Origin: a virus
Lineage: Duplodnaviria; Heunggongvirae; Uroviricota; Caudoviricetes
IMG/VR virus record: IMGVR_UViG_2684622670_000004
Span: 1 to 8,446 of that record
Direction: 5' to 3' (one strand)
DNA length: 8,446 nucleotides
Every line of letters begins with the position of its first letter. The first letter of the stretch is position 1. Made by a program: the position numbers and the translations under genes. Positions 764-8,292 of this stretch are shown piece by piece. The notes below the pieces were generated by a model, which had not been told where the DNA came from, made no database searches, and saw only the letters and a list, made by a program, of their open reading frames with translations.

Positions 764-1045
764 ATGTTTGATTTCACAATAATGCTCCTCTCCATCCTTG
801 GCGGGGTGCATTCGTTTCTGAATGGGGTTCGTGAAAAACGTTACGAAGCGTCATGCAGGCAATTGATGGCCGAGTGTATTGCTGCCGTACTTGCAGGCTT
901 TATAGGCATGTATTTCGCGGAATATAAGGGTATGGATGAAAGTCTTCAGAATTGCGTGACTATTATTTGCAGCATCAATAACAGGCTCATTCTTGAAAAG
1001 TTACAAAGGATTATCGATTCGTACCTCAGTAGAAATGCCTCTTAA
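764..1045 (+). CDS. Small two-TM membrane protein, holin-like paralog of the downstream LydA-like gene (93 aa)
   Basis: ORF with a good SD. Two hydrophobic segments (FTIMLLSILGGVHSFLNGV and CIAAVLAGFIGMYFA). Clear paralogy to the next ORF (SILGGVHSFLNGVREKR vs SVIGGIGTFLMDVRDGRQ; VTIICSINN vs VTIASNN). Confidence 0.75.
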   Translation: MFDFTIMLLSILGGVHSFLNGVREKRYEASCRQLMAECIAAVLAGFIGMYFAEYKGMDESLQNCVTIICSINNRLILEKLQRIIDSYLSRNAS

Positions 1046-1086
1046 GCAACAAATGACCGGTTGAGAAGTTACTTTGCATACCATTA

Positions 1087-1106
1087 CCTCCTGACAACGT
1101 AGGAGG
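1087..1106 (+). promoter_or_regulatory. Possible SD-sequestering hairpin ahead of the LydA-like gene (CCTCCT-8 nt loop-AGGAGG)
   Basis: A 6-bp perfect stem in which the 3' arm is the AGGAGG Shine-Dalgarno of the GTG-initiated ORF at 1113. Could modulate holin translation. Seen only as sequence complementarity. Confidence 0.3.
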
Positions 1107-1112
1107 GAACTT

Positions 1113-1442
1113 GTGCTTGACACACAGGAATTAGCTCCAGTTGCTATTGCGCTCCTGCTTTCAGTAATTGGTGGGATAGGCACGTTCCTGATGGATGTCC
1201 GAGACGGTCGCCAGTCTGGCAATTTGTTGGGATTGGTTACGGAGATCTGTGTTGCAGTGACAGCTGGCGCGGTGGCGTACCTATTGGGGCAACATGAGGG
1301 CTGGGAGTTATCAATTACGTACTTAATGGTAACGATAGCCAGCAATAACGGTCATGAGGTGATTTCAGGGATGAAACGAGTGAATATCGATAGCATTCTG
1401 AATGTTCTTACAAGTTTGGTGAAAAAGGGAGGCGGGAAATGA
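1113..1442 (+). CDS. lydA: Holin, LydA-like (109 aa, GTG start)
   Basis: GTG start 6 nt after GGAGGG. Two to three predicted TM segments (LAPVAIALLLSVIGGIGTFLM, LLGLVTEICVAVTAGAVAYLLG). Its position immediately upstream of lydB-like/hdf/darA matches the P1 lysis-dar operon as I remember it. The stop overlaps the next start (ATGA). Confidence 0.75.
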   Translation: MLDTQELAPVAIALLLSVIGGIGTFLMDVRDGRQSGNLLGLVTEICVAVTAGAVAYLLGQHEGWELSITYLMVTIASNNGHEVISGMKRVNIDSILNVLTSLVKKGGGK

Positions 1443-1882
1443 TTGGCTGGGGTGTATGCGCTCTTGCGGCAGCCTTAGCTGATCGCTATTTGCTAAAACG
1501 CAAGGACATCACGAATTTAGAGCTTGGTGATGTGGAAATTAAACCGGGATTTATCCGGGTGCCGTTCAAATATCGGTCTAAATTCCCGTTTTTGCGCGGT
1601 GCAACGGTCAGATATTGGATCCGTGATGTTCAGAAGCCGACGACAGTGATTGAAGGCGAACAACGTTGCCTGACGTCGGCTGAACAGGGCGAAAACAGTG
1701 AATGGTTGTACATACCCACTGAATATATGGGTAAAGGAGAACGACTGTGGCATTTCAACGTCATGGTTACGCACGGCGACTCGTTCATTAACCCGTTGTA
1801 TCGGATTTTCCCTGTTACTCAGCAAATCCGCAGAAGTTACGTAATAAATCTCGCACAGGATGTGTCAGATGACGAAAAATAA
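1439..1882 (+). CDS. lydB: LydB-like holin antagonist / lysis regulator (147 aa)
   Basis: Start coupled to the lydA stop (ATGA overlap), with a GGGAGG SD. N-terminal hydrophobic segment (MIGWGVCALAAALA). Size and position match P1 LydB as recalled. Function inferred from synteny only. Confidence 0.65.
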   Translation: MIGWGVCALAAALADRYLLKRKDITNLELGDVEIKPGFIRVPFKYRSKFPFLRGATVRYWIRDVQKPTTVIEGEQRCLTSAEQGENSEWLYIPTEYMGKGERLWHFNVMVTHGDSFINPLYRIFPVTQQIRRSYVINLAQDVSDDEK

Positions 1883-2471
1883 GTATGCAACGGTCGATTT
1901 TGGCCAGGTTAATGAAAAGGGGCTGAAATCCCTTATCGCGGCGATCAATAAAACCGGTGTTACGGTAATTGAGGTTGACTCCAGCAACCGCGCAACAACG
2001 AAAGATGGCGTTAAAGTTAAAACCGCAAAGCTGGTTCTTAACGACGGACAAATTCTTGCCATACAGGTAAACGATACTGGTGATATATCGTCTGTGAAAC
2101 TGAATGGAAAAGCTATTCCTAATGCTCAATCGCCAGATATCAAGACGCTTGGTACCGTCATGGGGCAAGCGGCCCACAAAAACGCTGCAAAATTCCAGAA
2201 ATCACTGATCGCCAAAGCTAAACGTGTTGCCAATCCGGTAGACAAGAAACCGGCAGTTAAATCCAACTTTCAGCGCCTGCAAGAGGCAAAACAGCGGAAT
2301 GCTCAGGTGGTTGCCGCTTATAAATCCGCGCAGAACTCGGTGTCTTTCAATCAACAGCAGATCACTGATTTGCGGGCGAAGCTGGATAAGGAGACAGGTC
2401 GACTCAATAACGAAAAGGCCAGGAATGGCGAACTCAAACGCCGTCTTAAGCAACTGAAAGCAGGAAATTAA
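1860..2471 (+). CDS. hdf: Hdf, homolog of DarA fragment (203 aa; alternative start at 1869 gives 200 aa)
   Basis: Shares alignable blocks with the N-terminal third of the downstream 639-aa protein (LNDGQ-ILAIQ vs LSDGQ-TISIL; HKNAAKFQK vs EKNSAKFQR). C-terminal coiled-coil-like basic tail. The ATG at 1869 sits 9 nt after AGGA and is the more likely start. Confidence 0.75.
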   Translation: MCQMTKNKYATVDFGQVNEKGLKSLIAAINKTGVTVIEVDSSNRATTKDGVKVKTAKLVLNDGQILAIQVNDTGDISSVKLNGKAIPNAQSPDIKTLGTVMGQAAHKNAAKFQKSLIAKAKRVANPVDKKPAVKSNFQRLQEAKQRNAQVVAAYKSAQNSVSFNQQQITDLRAKLDKETGRLNNEKARNGELKRRLKQLKAGN

Positions 2472-2472
2472 C

Positions 2473-4392
2473 ATGGAACAGTTCAATATCAATAAAGGGG
2501 TGACGATTAAGCCGGGGCTTGACGTGCTTCCCCCGCCGGTGACTGATGATGAATATCGCGCATTAATGGCCGGTGAGGACCGCTATCTGATGACGGAATC
2601 CAACACCATGGAGGAAATCGAGGCTACGTTCTTCTATGACACGCCGATCCACTGGTGTACTACGGATTTACTGGAGGCGATTAGTTCTACTCGTTTGCAG
2701 TTACACCGGACCATGCAGGCATTTGTCCGGGCATTGAACCAGAAGCTTAATGGTACCGGAATCTCTGCGGGGAGTGATAAAACGGGGGATGTGGCCCAGA
2801 GCGGCACGCGAGCGATCGGCGGTGCTGAAATTGGCCGGGCACGTAACGTTAACGGGCTGCCGGTCCTGCCAGCCATTATTCCGCTCAGTGATGGTCAGAC
2901 TATCAGCATTCTGTTTCATAGCCTGACAGCGGAAAACCGGATCACCAATAGCGATACGCTGGTTGCTTTCCAGTTCTTACTGAATAAAAAAGACGTTACT
3001 CACACCGTTGCTCCGATGAGTGGACGTGATATGACGCTGGCACAGGTCACCATGAAACTTGCCAACCTTGCAGAGAAAAACTCGGCAAAATTCCAGCGTG
3101 CGCAGAAGAAGAAAAAAGCTCTTGTTGATGAAATAACCCAACTACAGGCTGACAGTGACCAGAAAGAGGATGCCATGAGCGACCTCGCGGATCAGGTGGC
3201 AGCGGTAGAAGGGCTGAAGGCAGATCTGGAGCAGAAAATTAACGCTGTTGCATCGGAAGCGGATTCTCTTTATGAAGAGAATGAGCGTTTGCAGACGGAG
3301 ATTGATCAGCTCAATCGCACAGGTGGGCGCGATACCATTGCTCCAGCGGGGATGACTGGTGGGCACTCGCGCGCGCTGACGGATCGCCTTGCCAGTATCA
3401 AAAATCGTATGCATATGAACGGGGAAGTGACGCTCAGTAATGGTGCATCAATGAAGCAATTCATTGAGGACGGCGAAGGGTATATCCAGTTAACCGATTC
3501 GGATGGCAGCGTGTACATGATCAAGGCTAAATCCATACAGGGTGTGGACATGGCAGATGCGATCGGCAAGCTGTTTAAAGCCTATAAAGCGGGTAATGTA
3601 TCGGAATATCTGGTCCAGCCAGAAGAACATAAACCAGAAAACGTCGAACCTGAACCAGCGGAGGATACCGGTAGCTCTTCGCCTGAACCAGAAGTCTCTG
3701 TAGGTGCATATCGATATGCCCTGCAAATGCGTCCGGCAGCCCCTGGCGCAATACCTGAAGGTAACAAAGCGATTCTGCCGCGCCCAGATGAAGGTGACCC
3801 GTATTATGAATATGCACGCTACGGCATTGCTACTTACGATACCCCGCTTTCTGATCAGCAAATGAGTGAGTACGACCTGAAGTTATTGCCTCGCGAGGAT
3901 TCTTTCGACTTCCTGGCGAAGACACTTACTAATGGTCCGTTTGGCAAATATGCACAAAAAGCTCTGGAGCTGGCCACCAGCTCACCAGACGAGTTCCGCG
4001 TAATGCTGAAAACTCAGTTTCAAAAAACTTTCCCCAATATTGCGTTTCCTGGGGGCGCAGGCACCGAGAAAATGGTGCAGAGCATGATCAATGCATTGCA
4101 GGCCGAAGTCGGTGAGATTACTCAACCAGAACCGGCCCCGGAACCGGCTGATGAAAAGGTTAGCGAAGCAGATGCAGAGGCTAATAAAGCCATTGAATAT
4201 CTCAATAACGTGATGGATATGCAAAGCACTGACATGGCGGAGATCCGCAACGCCAGGGGCAATGTCAGGGAAGCGATTGCTGCCCTTCAGGCTGCCGGAC
4301 GTTTTGATGAAAACGAAGAGCTGGTTAACGGCGCAGCTCGCCACCTGGCTGATCTGCTGGTAGCAATCCAGAAAGCGGGAGTAGCGGCATGA
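2473..4392 (+). CDS. darA: DarA-like capsid-internal anti-restriction / head morphogenesis protein (639 aa)
   Basis: ORF begins 1 nt after the hdf stop, with an AGGAAA SD. 639 aa matches my memory of P1 DarA. Has the internal Hdf-homologous segment, a central coiled-coil (KKKKALVDEITQLQ...EENERLQTEIDQLNR) and Pro/Glu-rich linkers (PENVEPEPAEDTGSSSPEPE; QPEPAPEPADEK). Confidence 0.8.
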   Translation: MEQFNINKGVTIKPGLDVLPPPVTDDEYRALMAGEDRYLMTESNTMEEIEATFFYDTPIHWCTTDLLEAISSTRLQLHRTMQAFVRALNQKLNGTGISAGSDKTGDVAQSGTRAIGGAEIGRARNVNGLPVLPAIIPLSDGQTISILFHSLTAENRITNSDTLVAFQFLLNKKDVTHTVAPMSGRDMTLAQVTMKLANLAEKNSAKFQRAQKKKKALVDEITQLQADSDQKEDAMSDLADQVAAVEGLKADLEQKINAVASEADSLYEENERLQTEIDQLNRTGGRDTIAPAGMTGGHSRALTDRLASIKNRMHMNGEVTLSNGASMKQFIEDGEGYIQLTDSDGSVYMIKAKSIQGVDMADAIGKLFKAYKAGNVSEYLVQPEEHKPENVEPEPAEDTGSSSPEPEVSVGAYRYALQMRPAAPGAIPEGNKAILPRPDEGDPYYEYARYGIATYDTPLSDQQMSEYDLKLLPREDSFDFLAKTLTNGPFGKYAQKALELATSSPDEFRVMLKTQFQKTFPNIAFPGGAGTEKMVQSMINALQAEVGEITQPEPAPEPADEKVSEADAEANKAIEYLNNVMDMQSTDMAEIRNARGNVREAIAALQAAGRFDENEELVNGAARHLADLLVAIQKAGVAA

Positions 4393-4754
4393 CACTATCA
4401 GCTATTGAGTTAATGGACCTCAGCGATAAGTTGGATGCTCTGATGTCCAAAGCTGCTACCGCGAGTGGCATGGAGTTGCTGGATATCAGCGATGAAATTG
4501 ACCAGATCATGCAACAGATGGGGTACGGCGCGTCCGGCGGCGGTAATGGCGAGGAAAAACAACCTTCGGTACATGATGGTATACCAAAACTGGTTGCTGA
4601 TTTCCTGGCTGATAAATTCGTCGATCAGAGCACCGATGCATTTATCGGTACGTTGCAGGACTTAAGTCAATATGTTGGCACATACATCGACCTGGACCAG
4701 GTTAAACAGCACACGGCGGTATGGATAGCCGCCAACATTAAAGAGGCAGCATAA
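4389..4754 (+). CDS. ddrA: DdrA-like small acidic protein downstream of darA (121 aa)
   Basis: Start overlaps the darA stop (ATGA), with a GGGAG SD. Acidic, with a Gly-rich loop (GYGASGGGNGEE). Position and size fit P1 ddrA as recalled. Confidence 0.65.
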   Translation: MTLSAIELMDLSDKLDALMSKAATASGMELLDISDEIDQIMQQMGYGASGGGNGEEKQPSVHDGIPKLVADFLADKFVDQSTDAFIGTLQDLSQYVGTYIDLDQVKQHTAVWIAANIKEAA

Positions 4755-4766
4755 GGCGTAACAGGG

Positions 4767-6455
4767 ATGAGTTTAAACGATCAGATAGTTATGACCACCA
4801 GCAGCGGATACAACGGTGTTGCGCCATATACCAGCTTGTTATTACATCGGGCATCCGGCATCAAAGATATTATTCACCTGATCCGGCTGCTTTCCCGCAC
4901 AGATCCCCAGGATGAACAGCTGGTACAAGTGCTTGCGCATTTTGTCCGAATCCCTGTTGCAGACGTGAAAAAATGGTGTCGATTATTCGGTATCAGCAAT
5001 TCGTTACTTCGCGGATTGTTAAATCACGCATCCTCCCTTGGGCGAGACGGCTTTGATGAGATAGCGCAGGCGATAAAAAACGGAGATATGCCACCAGCTA
5101 TTGACTGGTTTTCCATTCGCCCAACCAGGGTGAAAGCATTCCTTAGCGCGGCGCAATCAGCATCACCATTGGCAGAAATGGTTCAGAGGTTGTCGCTCAT
5201 ATTCACAGATCATACCGCGTTTGGTGATCTGGCTCTGGACGAGATGAAAGAAGCCGCCATTCAGTGGGCCGATCAACAAAATGAGGTTAACTCTGACTTC
5301 TTGCCAGCATTCAGGAAGGCCGTTAGTAAAGCGGATGATGCCCGTGGAATTATGAAGGCATTTAAGGCATTGCAAAGTCGGGTTAATAAACATGCCGGTG
5401 ATATCGATGGGGTAACGGCGGAAGGCCGGGATATCCTGAAAGAGCACGGCATAACGCCAGAATTTATTGATGAGATCAGGACGGATATGCAGCGTGAGGT
5501 CGTATCGTCTCTGCAAATCGTAGCCAGGGCGTTGGCGGATGCTAATCCGAAGAGTGCGGCCATTGTTAACCGGGTTATTGGTGATATTGAAGCATCTGAG
5601 GGCATGGGGGCACTGAAACTCTTCCTTTCGCGAGCGTTTAATCCTAACGGCAATATTCTTCCCGGCATTATTGGTGAGGCTAAAAAGTATGTCAGTGAAG
5701 AAGAACTTGAGCAGCTTGACCAACTACTTAAGCGATTCTCATATAACCCGCAGACACGCTGGCAAATGAATCAGCGAGGTATGGGTTTGGTCCACGAGAA
5801 AGTGTTATCTGCCATGAACAGTGCGATCGCAAACTCATCTGTATCTGAAGAAAAAGCTCTTGAGTGGGCCGACTCTTTTATCACGGAAGAAGTGGAAGAA
5901 GCCCGCGCTGGACAGAATGGTGGGATAGACCTGCGCAAGGAACTTGCTGATATTTATCGCCTGAGCGGCGGGAAAATATCGACCTTATCAAAGGTAGTTC
6001 ACCACCAGGGAAGGGCATATGCAAATCTAAATGGTGTTGTTGCTGTCAATTTGAACGATGAAAATGCAAGTGCACTGTGGCACGAGCTGGGTCATCATCT
6101 TGAGTACAGTAACCCTGGTTTGTTAGAGAAAGCCCGGTCATTCCTGAAGGCCAATGTTGAAGGGGATAAACCATCTTTCGTTAATATCGGTGGGCGTGGC
6201 AAGCCTGAATGGTGCTTCAGATCTCAATTGAGTAATATTTATATGGCGAAGGTATACCCGCCAGTCTCAGTAAGTAACACCGGGAAAATTCGGCAGAAAT
6301 CACCGACTATTTCCAAAACGTCAGCAACGGAAGTATTCTCTATGGCTCTTCAGTTGTATCATGACAAAGAGGCCGCTGCCGCATCACTGATGAATGGTGA
6401 CGGATTGCTGGAACTGTTATTAGGTGTGGCAAAGGAGCTAAATAATGCAGATTAA
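4767..6455 (+). CDS. HExxH-motif putative zinc metallopeptidase in the ddrB position of the dar operon (562 aa)
   Basis: Long ORF with operon-consistent codon usage. Near the C-terminus is WHELGHHLEY (HExxH zincin signature) with downstream Glu candidates (LLEKARSF; NVEGD) for the third ligand. I do not recognise the N-terminal two-thirds. I cannot confirm orthology to P1 DdrB from memory. Confidence 0.7.
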   Translation: MSLNDQIVMTTSSGYNGVAPYTSLLLHRASGIKDIIHLIRLLSRTDPQDEQLVQVLAHFVRIPVADVKKWCRLFGISNSLLRGLLNHASSLGRDGFDEIAQAIKNGDMPPAIDWFSIRPTRVKAFLSAAQSASPLAEMVQRLSLIFTDHTAFGDLALDEMKEAAIQWADQQNEVNSDFLPAFRKAVSKADDARGIMKAFKALQSRVNKHAGDIDGVTAEGRDILKEHGITPEFIDEIRTDMQREVVSSLQIVARALADANPKSAAIVNRVIGDIEASEGMGALKLFLSRAFNPNGNILPGIIGEAKKYVSEEELEQLDQLLKRFSYNPQTRWQMNQRGMGLVHEKVLSAMNSAIANSSVSEEKALEWADSFITEEVEEARAGQNGGIDLRKELADIYRLSGGKISTLSKVVHHQGRAYANLNGVVAVNLNDENASALWHELGHHLEYSNPGLLEKARSFLKANVEGDKPSFVNIGGRGKPEWCFRSQLSNIYMAKVYPPVSVSNTGKIRQKSPTISKTSATEVFSMALQLYHDKEAAAASLMNGDGLLELLLGVAKELNNAD

Positions 6456-6765
6456 AATCGCAGCGCCATTAGGCGGAGATGCCATTATCGAATTTGATGA
6501 TAATGAAGAAGTTTCCGGGCGTTTAAGCATTATCTCCGGTGACATTACCGAGGACATGATCGCTGAAGCCATAGCTGGGGCAAATCCCAATAGCTATATG
6601 GGATTCGTTAACACCCTTGATGCTCCCGCAAGTGATGTTCTCCGAACGCTGCATCTTTACGCTGGCTGGTTTGTTGATTGGCCAGCAGTAGATGGTGGCG
6701 ATGAGGATGATGATGACGATGAAGAGGGTTTTAGTGATGAAACAGTCAACCAACTCTTGTATTGA
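6445..6765 (+). CDS. Hyperacidic small protein, possible DNA-mimic-type anti-restriction factor (106 aa)
   Basis: AAGGAG SD 8 nt before the ATG. Overlaps the preceding stop by 11 nt. About 27 Asp/Glu against 3 Lys/Arg, with a C-terminal DGGDEDDDDDEEGFSDE tract. Last gene of the operon. Confidence 0.7.
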   Translation: MQIKIAAPLGGDAIIEFDDNEEVSGRLSIISGDITEDMIAEAIAGANPNSYMGFVNTLDAPASDVLRTLHLYAGWFVDWPAVDGGDEDDDDDEEGFSDETVNQLLY

Positions 6766-6894
6766 CAGGAATTGGCATAGAATTGATTGTTCAAATTTCA
6801 TCCATCACATAGACGACTTCATGTTATTTGCCTGATAATTATGGCCTTAATAACCCATGTATATCTTTTGGGTTATATTCTTATCTTTAACAAG

Positions 6895-6940
6895 GTTATA
6901 AGAGCGACAATGATAAATTTATCACTATCGCTCTTATAAC
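6895..6940. repeat. 46-bp near-perfect palindrome (21 of 23 base pairs complementary, no spacer)
   Basis: GTTATAAGAGCGACAATGATAAAT / ATTTATCACTATCGCTCTTATAAC. The only mismatches are at 6908/6927 and 6910/6925. Followed by TCTTTGTT. Lies 130 bp downstream of the operon's last stop codon. Confidence 0.85.
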
Positions 6941-6968
6941 TCTTTGTTAGCTATAGCTTTAAACAAAT

Positions 6969-7175
6969 TTAGTTTTGAGGCAATGCAACAAAAGTCAGCT
7001 CTTGATCTTTGATTAATGCTTTTGTTTGTTTGGATGTAATTCCCACTTTAGTTTTTACATCATTGTGGAGCTTCTTATACGCTTTTATTTCATCTGCTGT
7101 ATATCGGAAGCCATTTGCACTGTTACTGGACAGTTGAAGTGCGATTACGTCATCACTGACACCCGCATCGCTTAG
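6969..7175 (-). pseudogene. Start-less 68-codon protein-like open frame, possible remnant of a truncated gene
   Basis: Minus-strand frame translating to LSDAGVSDDVIALQLSSNSANGFRYTADEIKAYKKLHNDVKTKVGITSKQTKALIKDQELTFVALPQN*. It is bounded upstream by an in-frame TAG (plus 7176-7178) and contains no ATG. All three upstream frames are stop-rich. Composition is not typical of random AT-rich translation. Confidence 0.25.
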
Positions 7176-7469
7176 CTATGCGGGTAATAGTGTGGCCTGC
7201 GCGAGTGTTTGTGGTGGATATTTTGTCTAAGAAATTGTTCAGTTTTGCCATTGTTTACAACCTCTTACTTGAGTTTATTGCAAGTAGAATTGCTACTATT
7301 CTTTTGCCTCAACGAATCACAATGTACTGGAATAAGAAACTATGAGCAATACTTACGCTTTGCGAATACAGAAGATGAATAATCAACTTATTACTAAAAT
7401 GTTAATAATATTATTCTGTTACATAGTGTTCGCTATAACAATCGGGAGTTGAATGCTAATTCAATAAAT

Positions 7470-7497
7470 AAAGAACCCGCCAATTGGCGGGTTCTTT
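7470..7497. terminator. Bidirectional rho-independent terminator (AAAGAACCCGCC-AATT-GGCGGGTTCTTT)
   Basis: Perfect 12-bp GC-containing stem with a 4-nt loop. Flanked by a T-run on the plus strand (TTTTTA) and by ATTTATTTATT on the minus strand. Directly abuts the stop codon of the convergent 264-aa gene. Confidence 0.75.
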
Positions 7498-8292
7498 TTA
7501 ATCACTTTCCACTTCTTCCGTGGTGTTTTCTTGCAGTTCTGTTAATGCAGCACGACACAGGTTCCGGGCCTTGGCTATAGCCACACTTTTTACCTCATCC
7601 GTCATTGTGCAGGTAATGTACTGATCGAGTTCTTCAGCTCGGATGATGCTTTTCCCAATCATAAACTCTATTTGCCAGAGCAGATCGGCATCCATCGTCA
7701 GTATTTCAGCCTGGCCTTCTGGGCCTGCGGGGAAGCAAACATAAGACTGTTTTCCCAGGCCGATAACTCGACAACTTGCTTCAAGAATTGCGCGCTTGAG
7801 GTCTGACTTTGTAACGGAAACAGGTTGGTTTTCACCAGTGATTACGCCGTTGACATGGAAGTGGAAGGGCATGTAGCTTGAAATTCGCTCTACTTTCCAT
7901 ACGCCAGCAAGCGATCCTTCATGCAGCACAATGGGGGTAACCGCGAGTTTCATCTCACCATATAACTGCTGGCAGATAGCTGGATTGCTGAATACATCCA
8001 AAGGCTCACATTCAAACAGCGGCGCAATCTGCATGAGGTCCATCATGGTCATCCCTGGGGTCCGAGCAGTAATGAATTTGCGCATGCCAGTATCCATTGT
8101 GCGCCAGATAGCCATACCATGCTTTTTGCTCACTTCTTCAGTAAAACCAAGGTGGCACATGATGGTCTTTTCGATAGCCAGATCAGAGATAGAAACCTTT
8201 TCGCCTGGCACTCCATCATTATTGATGGTCACTTCGACACTCTGGCCATTACGTAGGCGGTATTGAATGGTTTTAGTATTTTGTGCTGTCAT
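7498..8292 (-). CDS. Hypothetical protein, function unknown (264 aa)
   Basis: Long uninterrupted ORF ending at the terminator. Weak SD (GAGAAAAGA) 14 nt after the stop of an upstream partial ORF, suggesting an operon. Contains His-rich segments (PIVLHEGS; MPFHFHVNG) but no motif I can assign to a family. Confidence 0.7.
   Translation of the reverse strand: MTAQNTKTIQYRLRNGQSVEVTINNDGVPGEKVSISDLAIEKTIMCHLGFTEEVSKKHGMAIWRTMDTGMRKFITARTPGMTMMDLMQIAPLFECEPLDVFSNPAICQQLYGEMKLAVTPIVLHEGSLAGVWKVERISSYMPFHFHVNGVITGENQPVSVTKSDLKRAILEASCRVIGLGKQSYVCFPAGPEGQAEILTMDADLLWQIEFMIGKSIIRAEELDQYITCTMTDEVKSVAIAKARNLCRAALTELQENTTEEVESD

Follow-up and report, generated by a model that had tools for sequence, protein, structure and literature searches.

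The closest described system to the locus analysed here is the lysis module of bacteriophage P1. In the P1 record NC_005856, whose annotation derives from Lobocka et al. 2004, the homologous stretch reads cin, lydC, LPdar, lydA, lydB, hdf, darA, with lydC, lydA and lydB denoted as P1_gp028, gp027 and gp026. P1 lydC (YP_006498.1, record positions 31251-31532) lies between cin and lydA and carries the record note 'holin by homology; 30 pct identical to LydA holin of P1'.

Mutants of P1 lydC, lydA and lydD were constructed by Bednarek et al. 2022 (PMC9025707), and the literature assigns the holins to class II (two TMDs, N-in/C-in). In that study, cloned lydC or lydA was lethal or growth-arresting, lydA mutants did not lyse E. 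coli liquid cultures, and lydC mutants showed delayed lysis in E. coli and Enterobacter cloacae alike. The lydA lydD double mutant formed zero plaques, and LydC alone is therefore insufficient. When the SAR-endolysin Lyz was replaced by the cytoplasmic lambda R, lysis was supported by LydA and LydC and not by the pinholin LydD, so that both LydA and LydC behave as canonical holins. LydB, which has no transmembrane domain, delayed LydA-dependent lysis (PMC9025707). A genome-wide CRISPRi study of P1 found lydC non-essential, with a plating efficiency of 1.1, and reported plating efficiencies of 0.12 for lydA and 0.023 for lydB, which was classed as essential (PMC10695390).

The stretch of DNA analysed here (the window, 8,446 nucleotides), searched as a whole, has matches among P1-type phages and in several hundred plasmids of Escherichia and Salmonella. 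The closest records are Escherichia albertii phage-plasmids, one of which, NZ_CP117679.1, covers 99% of the window at 98.1% identity. Positions 600-2100 are 98% identical in DNA to P1 (NC_005856, AF234172) over their whole length, with the same gene order. The left neighbour of lydC, as in P1, is the DNA invertase (serine recombinase) gene cin (75-635, − strand; PF00239 Resolvase, E 5e-51, plus HTH_7), and the divergent cin-lydC spacer (636-763) holds the Shine-Dalgarno sequence of lydC and, by the P1 annotation, cin promoters on the minus strand. We have little doubt that the window is the cin-lydC-lydA-lydB-hdf-darA-ddrA-ddrB-hxr-isaA segment of a P1-type phage-plasmid (Punavirus) in which LydA is the main holin, LydB its antiholin and LydC an accessory holin, taken as one joint reading. 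Identity, homology, family membership, promoter position, hydrophobic segments and distribution were established in the window itself; the functions are taken from the P1 literature.

The gene lydC (764-1045, + strand, 93 aa) starts with ATG behind a GAGGA Shine-Dalgarno sequence at 752-756. It occupies the slot between cin and LPdar/lydA, between flanks that are 98% identical to P1, and its product is 97% identical to P1 LydC (differences F2C, R30C and S88N), which identifies it as the orthologue of P1 lydC; a gene 100% identical to it is present in the E. albertii plasmid NZ_CP117679.1. The published functions of LydC should be read as those of the P1 allele, from which the window allele differs at these three residues. 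Downstream, lydA (1113-1442, + strand, 109 aa) encodes the main canonical holin and starts with GTG behind a GGAGG Shine-Dalgarno sequence at 1102-1106. The gap between the two genes is 67 bp. LydA of the window was aligned with its P1 counterpart, as an earlier sequence-only reading of this DNA had asked, and is 99% identical to it, with the single residue F46C setting it apart from both P1 and P7 LydA. Codon 46 (1248-1250) specifies Cys in TMD2 here and Phe in P1, P7 and 813R1. Just 1 of 620 matching plasmid records attains at least 99% identity to the window LydA, which makes the substitution rare. A residue change within a holin TMD could alter lysis timing.

That reading had supposed P1 to have no second lydA-like gene at this position, had suggested that the pair might be specific to this element, and had set beforehand the presence of the same two genes in P1 as the finding that would count against it. 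P1 does carry both, since NC_005856 annotates lydC at this position, and lydC is found at the same position in P7 and in many other P1-like phages and plasmids, so that the claim of element specificity falls. P1 and the window share gene order, spacing, the location of LPdar between lydC and lydA, and the ATGA overlap of lydA and lydB. The window differs from P1 in the residues listed above (three in LydC, one in LydA) and, further downstream, in a shortened ddrB and in missing IS1 and isaB, and these differences leave the lydC-lydA-lydB architecture unaltered. The arrangement is thus the already known P1 lysis module, real but ordinary. Its significance beyond correct annotation is small, as the components of the P1 module have already been knocked out and characterised; the corrections to annotation are that lydC is present in P1 and that its transcription unit is separate from that of lydA-lydB.

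The suggestion that the two proteins share transmembrane topology and sequence blocks was borne out as regards homology and matching hydrophobic segments. A formal pairwise alignment, also called for by the sequence-only reading, was significant: by BLASTP, LydC and LydA are identical at 26 of 84 positions (31%), with 56% positives, one gap and an E-value of 3e-13. The Smith-Waterman score is 113. Fully shuffled sequences gave 25.3 +/- 4.5 (z = 19) and those shuffled within the hydrophobic/polar pattern 27.1 +/- 5.4 (z = 16); with 2000 shuffles of each type, none scored as high as the real pair. As pattern-keeping shuffles do not attain this score, the similarity reflects real homology, beyond membrane-protein composition. 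Both proteins pass the gathering score of the Pfam family PF16083 (Phage_holin_3_3, LydA holin; 28.4 bits), LydC with 31.1 bits and LydA with 31.4 bits, and both match phrog_1527 'holin' (LydC, E 1e-39; LydA, E 2e-48). No NCBIfam model matches LydC, LydA or LydB.

Hydrophobic segments were called by a hydropathy scan (mean of 1.4 or more in a 17-residue Kyte-Doolittle window). Each protein contains two, at about residues 1-22 and 31-54 of LydC and about 3-30 and 35-61 of LydA, and these coincide in the alignment, as expected for small holins with TMDs (93 and 109 aa). A third hydrophobic stretch is shared, with I68, S70 and N72 invariant, and is too short for a TMD. The N-termini of both proteins are acidic and the loop between the TMDs of LydC carries a net positive charge (4 K/R, 2 D/E), a combination that has no obvious good fit to the N-in orientation of the published class II assignment. 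The C-terminal tail of LydA (79-109) is basic, with 5 K/R against 2 D/E, and shows the positively charged C-terminal tail of holins. The tail of LydC (55-93) is nearly neutral (5 K/R against 4 D/E) and has no KKGGGK-type end, a weak showing of the hydrophilic, positively charged tail of holins. We also considered a dual-start motif at Met1/Met7 of LydC and rejected it, as it is unconserved among alleles and has no basic residue between the starts.

The missing basic KKGGGK-type tail of LydA-type holins, together with the shared family and the aligned TMDs, allows LydC to be read mainly as an antiholin or timing modulator that acts in heteromers with LydA, like lambda S107 with S105, and not as an independent hole-former. 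Two published points lean the same way: a lyz::R lydC mutant lysed E. coli slightly earlier, and its authors propose that lydC, expressed early, may determine how LydA and LydD are balanced (PMC9025707). We regard this reading as unlikely, because the same study found that cloned lydC alone is lethal or growth-arresting, that loss of lydC from wild-type P1 delays lysis in E. coli and E. cloacae, and that LydC contributes to lambda R lysis in E. cloacae, and because the module already encodes an antiholin, LydB.

That antiholin gene, lydB (1439-1882, + strand), follows lydA directly and encodes the soluble LydA antagonist. LydB matches PF16084 (LydB) over positions 1-147 of 147 (E 3e-101) as well as phrog_1898, and contains no hydrophobic segment, its maximum Kyte-Doolittle window being 1.21; a full-length family match, no TMD and a position immediately after lydA are the features expected of the LydB antiholin. 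The ATG of lydB overlaps the stop codon of lydA (ATGA), which suggests that the two genes are translationally coupled. The rest of the dar operon (1860-6765, + strand) was assigned from the P1 annotation of the homologous stretch and from protein comparisons: hdf (1860-2471), with a DarA_N domain in its product, darA (2473-4392), ddrA (4389-4754), a shortened ddrB (4767-6455) and hxr (6445-6765), all on the + strand. No endolysin gene was found in the 8.4-kb window, so the holin genes do not show endolysin linkage, one of the features by which holins are recognised. In P1, lyz sits in an unlinked operon, an arrangement that is atypical (PMC9025707).

Taken with the P1 genetics, the module would operate as follows. 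LydA, the main canonical holin, would be transcribed late from the Lpa-dependent promoter LPdar and accumulate in the inner membrane; once triggered, it would form large holes through which the endolysin reaches the wall. Soluble LydB would antagonise LydA and so prevent premature lysis. LydC, a two-TMD accessory holin of the same family, would be expressed as its own unit just upstream of LPdar from a predicted early promoter; from its P1 phenotypes it would be toxic when expressed alone, its loss would delay and not abolish lysis, and it would not substitute for LydA. In P1, the genes for the endolysin, Lyz, and for the pinholin, LydD, lie elsewhere in the genome, outside the part that the window covers. 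The sequence-only reading had spoken of multi-layer control of lysis timing, and such control is documented experimentally for P1 (PMC9025707).

The arrangement resembles lambda S105/S107 in principle: in both, an antagonist delays the triggering of a small membrane holin. The lambda antiholin is an N-terminally extended form produced from the same gene. Here, by contrast, the antagonist is LydB, an unrelated soluble protein; LydC, the second member of the holin family, acts like a holin, and no dual-start motif is seen to be conserved.

The sequence-only reading had also grouped lydC and lydA as tandem genes upstream of lydB. That wording passes over a late promoter that stands between them. 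LPdar (1066-1084, + strand) consists of a −22 box, AAGTTACTT, at 1066-1074 and a −10 element, TACCAT, at 1079-1084, and does not differ from LPdar as annotated in P1 and P7. Given this promoter in the lydC-lydA spacer, the late dar operon starts with lydA and continues through lydB, hdf, darA and further genes, to the exclusion of lydC. Of 471 plasmid records, 447 have the 80 bp from 1056 to 1135 at 99% identity or more. The interval between lydC and lydA showed no terminator-like site.

P1 lydC has been described as a monocistronic operon with a putative early promoter ahead of it (PMC9025707). A sigma-70 scan of the + strand from 560 to 1500 returned one weak site (608-635, 9/12 matches), fewer than shuffles would lead one to expect, and the predicted lydC promoter gains no independent support from it. 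The P7 annotation places a C1 operator ahead of lydC, whereas no comparable operator-like site precedes lydC in the window. A C1 operator at this position was accordingly rejected, with no 17-mer near lydC matching ATTGCTCTAATAAATTT at 12/17 or better; within the window it is matched best at 6927 (+, 13/17) and 6892 (−, 12/17). As a separate observation, a 15-nt inverted repeat (642-656/1330-1344, 87% complementary) has its arms 673 nt apart, in the cin-lydC spacer and in lydA, and is probably due to chance.

Immediately downstream of LPdar, two RNA hairpins are predicted within 1087-1128 (+ strand). The first (1087-1093/1100-1106) pairs the lydA Shine-Dalgarno sequence AGGAGG and the second (1110-1115/1123-1128) pairs the GTG start. 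The predicted fold of 1080-1130 has an energy of −16.0 kcal/mol (z = −3.0), and 1 of 200 shuffles was as good. The distant homologues (Citrobacter, p92, Photobacterium) have unrelated lydA leaders without this hairpin, and the region is near-invariant in plasmids, which together preclude a covariation analysis of the leader hairpins. No Rfam family matches the window. As the −10 element ends at 1084, late LPdar transcripts should begin near 1091, inside the 5′ arm at 1087-1093, and would therefore be without most of the anti-Shine-Dalgarno arm. From these predicted hairpins we infer that the leader may serve as a translational insulator, in which early read-through from lydC keeps lydA untranslated while the Shine-Dalgarno sequence is free on late transcripts.

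The sequence-only reading had further held that one of the two genes arose by duplication of the other. Common ancestry is upheld by the alignments above; nothing indicates a tandem duplication in place. The lydC slot is occupied differently among relatives. P7 and vB_EcoM-813R1, like the window, carry a small PF16083-type gene between the invertase gene and LPdar, followed by P1-type lydA and lydB; their LydA is identical, lydB is at the same position, and their DNA is about 98% (P7) and about 92% (813R1) identical to the window. Slots homologous to 764-1045, between an invertase gene and LPdar, are located at 2207-2491 of L002 and 1495-1758 of L008. Compared with LydC of the window, however, the P7 allele is only 28% identical and that of vB_EcoM-813R1 62% identical, and the slot therefore holds at least three divergent alleles. 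Shortly ahead of LPdar, at about 1056, the P7 sequence again agrees with that of the window. The difference of P7 lydC is mentioned in passing in PMC9025707.

Among PLSDB plasmids, LydA is found at 95% identity or more in about 473 records. LydC in this collection is divided among the P1 type (at least 80% identity, about 222), the 813R1 type (60-80%, 152) and the P7 type (20). Between P1-type and 813R1-type lydC alleles, dN/dS is about 0.5. The picture is one of an invariant lydA beside an exchangeable and less constrained lydC. Such relaxed constraint, the non-essentiality of lydC in P1 (PMC10695390) and its absence from phage Ro157c2YLVW and distant relatives would also suit a decaying, non-functional holin remnant. 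We consider a remnant highly improbable: the open reading frame is intact and has a good Shine-Dalgarno sequence, the gene is intact in hundreds of plasmids, and toxicity and delayed-lysis phenotypes have been published (PMC9025707). An accessory holin remains our reading of LydC.

A single holin gene followed by lydB, hdf and darA-position genes, with no lydC, is found in Citrobacter freundii NZ_CP114569, E. coli p92_MLI108-1, Photobacterium damselae p1_510 and phage Ro157c2YLVW. These modules are like the window in having a LydA-family holin ahead of these genes and unlike it in having no second holin gene upstream. The lydC slot is thus an addition of the P1/P7 group and not universal to the module. 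In a multiple alignment, LydC is 39% identical to the single holin of the C. freundii plasmid, 36% identical to that of p92_MLI108-1 and 29% identical to its own LydA.

These comparisons bear on whether the pair arose by a recent tandem duplication of lydA in place, specific to the window element. The two genes are indeed neighbours with a shared orientation, and they encode homologous proteins. Such an event is nevertheless very hard to reconcile with the occurrence of the same pair in P1 as well as in some 370-390 records of P1-like plasmids, and with a LydC that is nearer to distant single holins than to its own LydA. At the DNA level, no direct repeats occur in 600-1500, and lydC and lydA have diverged almost to saturation at synonymous sites (pS 0.68, dS about 1.8). 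Cassette exchange better fits lydC alleles of 62% and 28% identity between flanks of about 98%. lydC and lydA are paralogues of long standing or cassettes that were exchanged, and not the product of a fresh duplication; an ancient duplication in a P1 ancestor could still lie behind the pair. That the spacer insulates lydA, that the lydC slot is an exchangeable holin cassette, perhaps tuning lysis to the host, or that both hold, we propose jointly and tentatively, as a possibility we would not yet favour. That lydC alleles are so diverse next to an invariant lydA could be of interest for work on host adaptation in P1-like phage-plasmids.

Further differences from P1 were observed downstream of the lysis genes. 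At the right end of the window, the longest open reading frame of isaA (7498-8292, − strand) encodes 264 aa that correspond to residues 57-320 of P1 IsaA (98% identical), and excludes the 56 N-terminal residues of the P1 annotation. Between hxr and isaA, where P1 carries isaB and IS1, the window has about 700 bp of AT-rich DNA (6770-7497) that contains no long open reading frames and is unmatched in P1 by megablast; the two C1-operator-like 17-mers at 6927 (+, 13/17) and 6892 (−, 12/17), the best in the window, are located in this stretch. DdrB (4767-6455) is 562 aa long, compared with 995 aa in P1. About 435 N-terminal residues have been lost in frame, and the protein retains P1 residues 1-12 and 448-995 (97% identical), including a C-terminal HExxH-like motif (WHELGHH).
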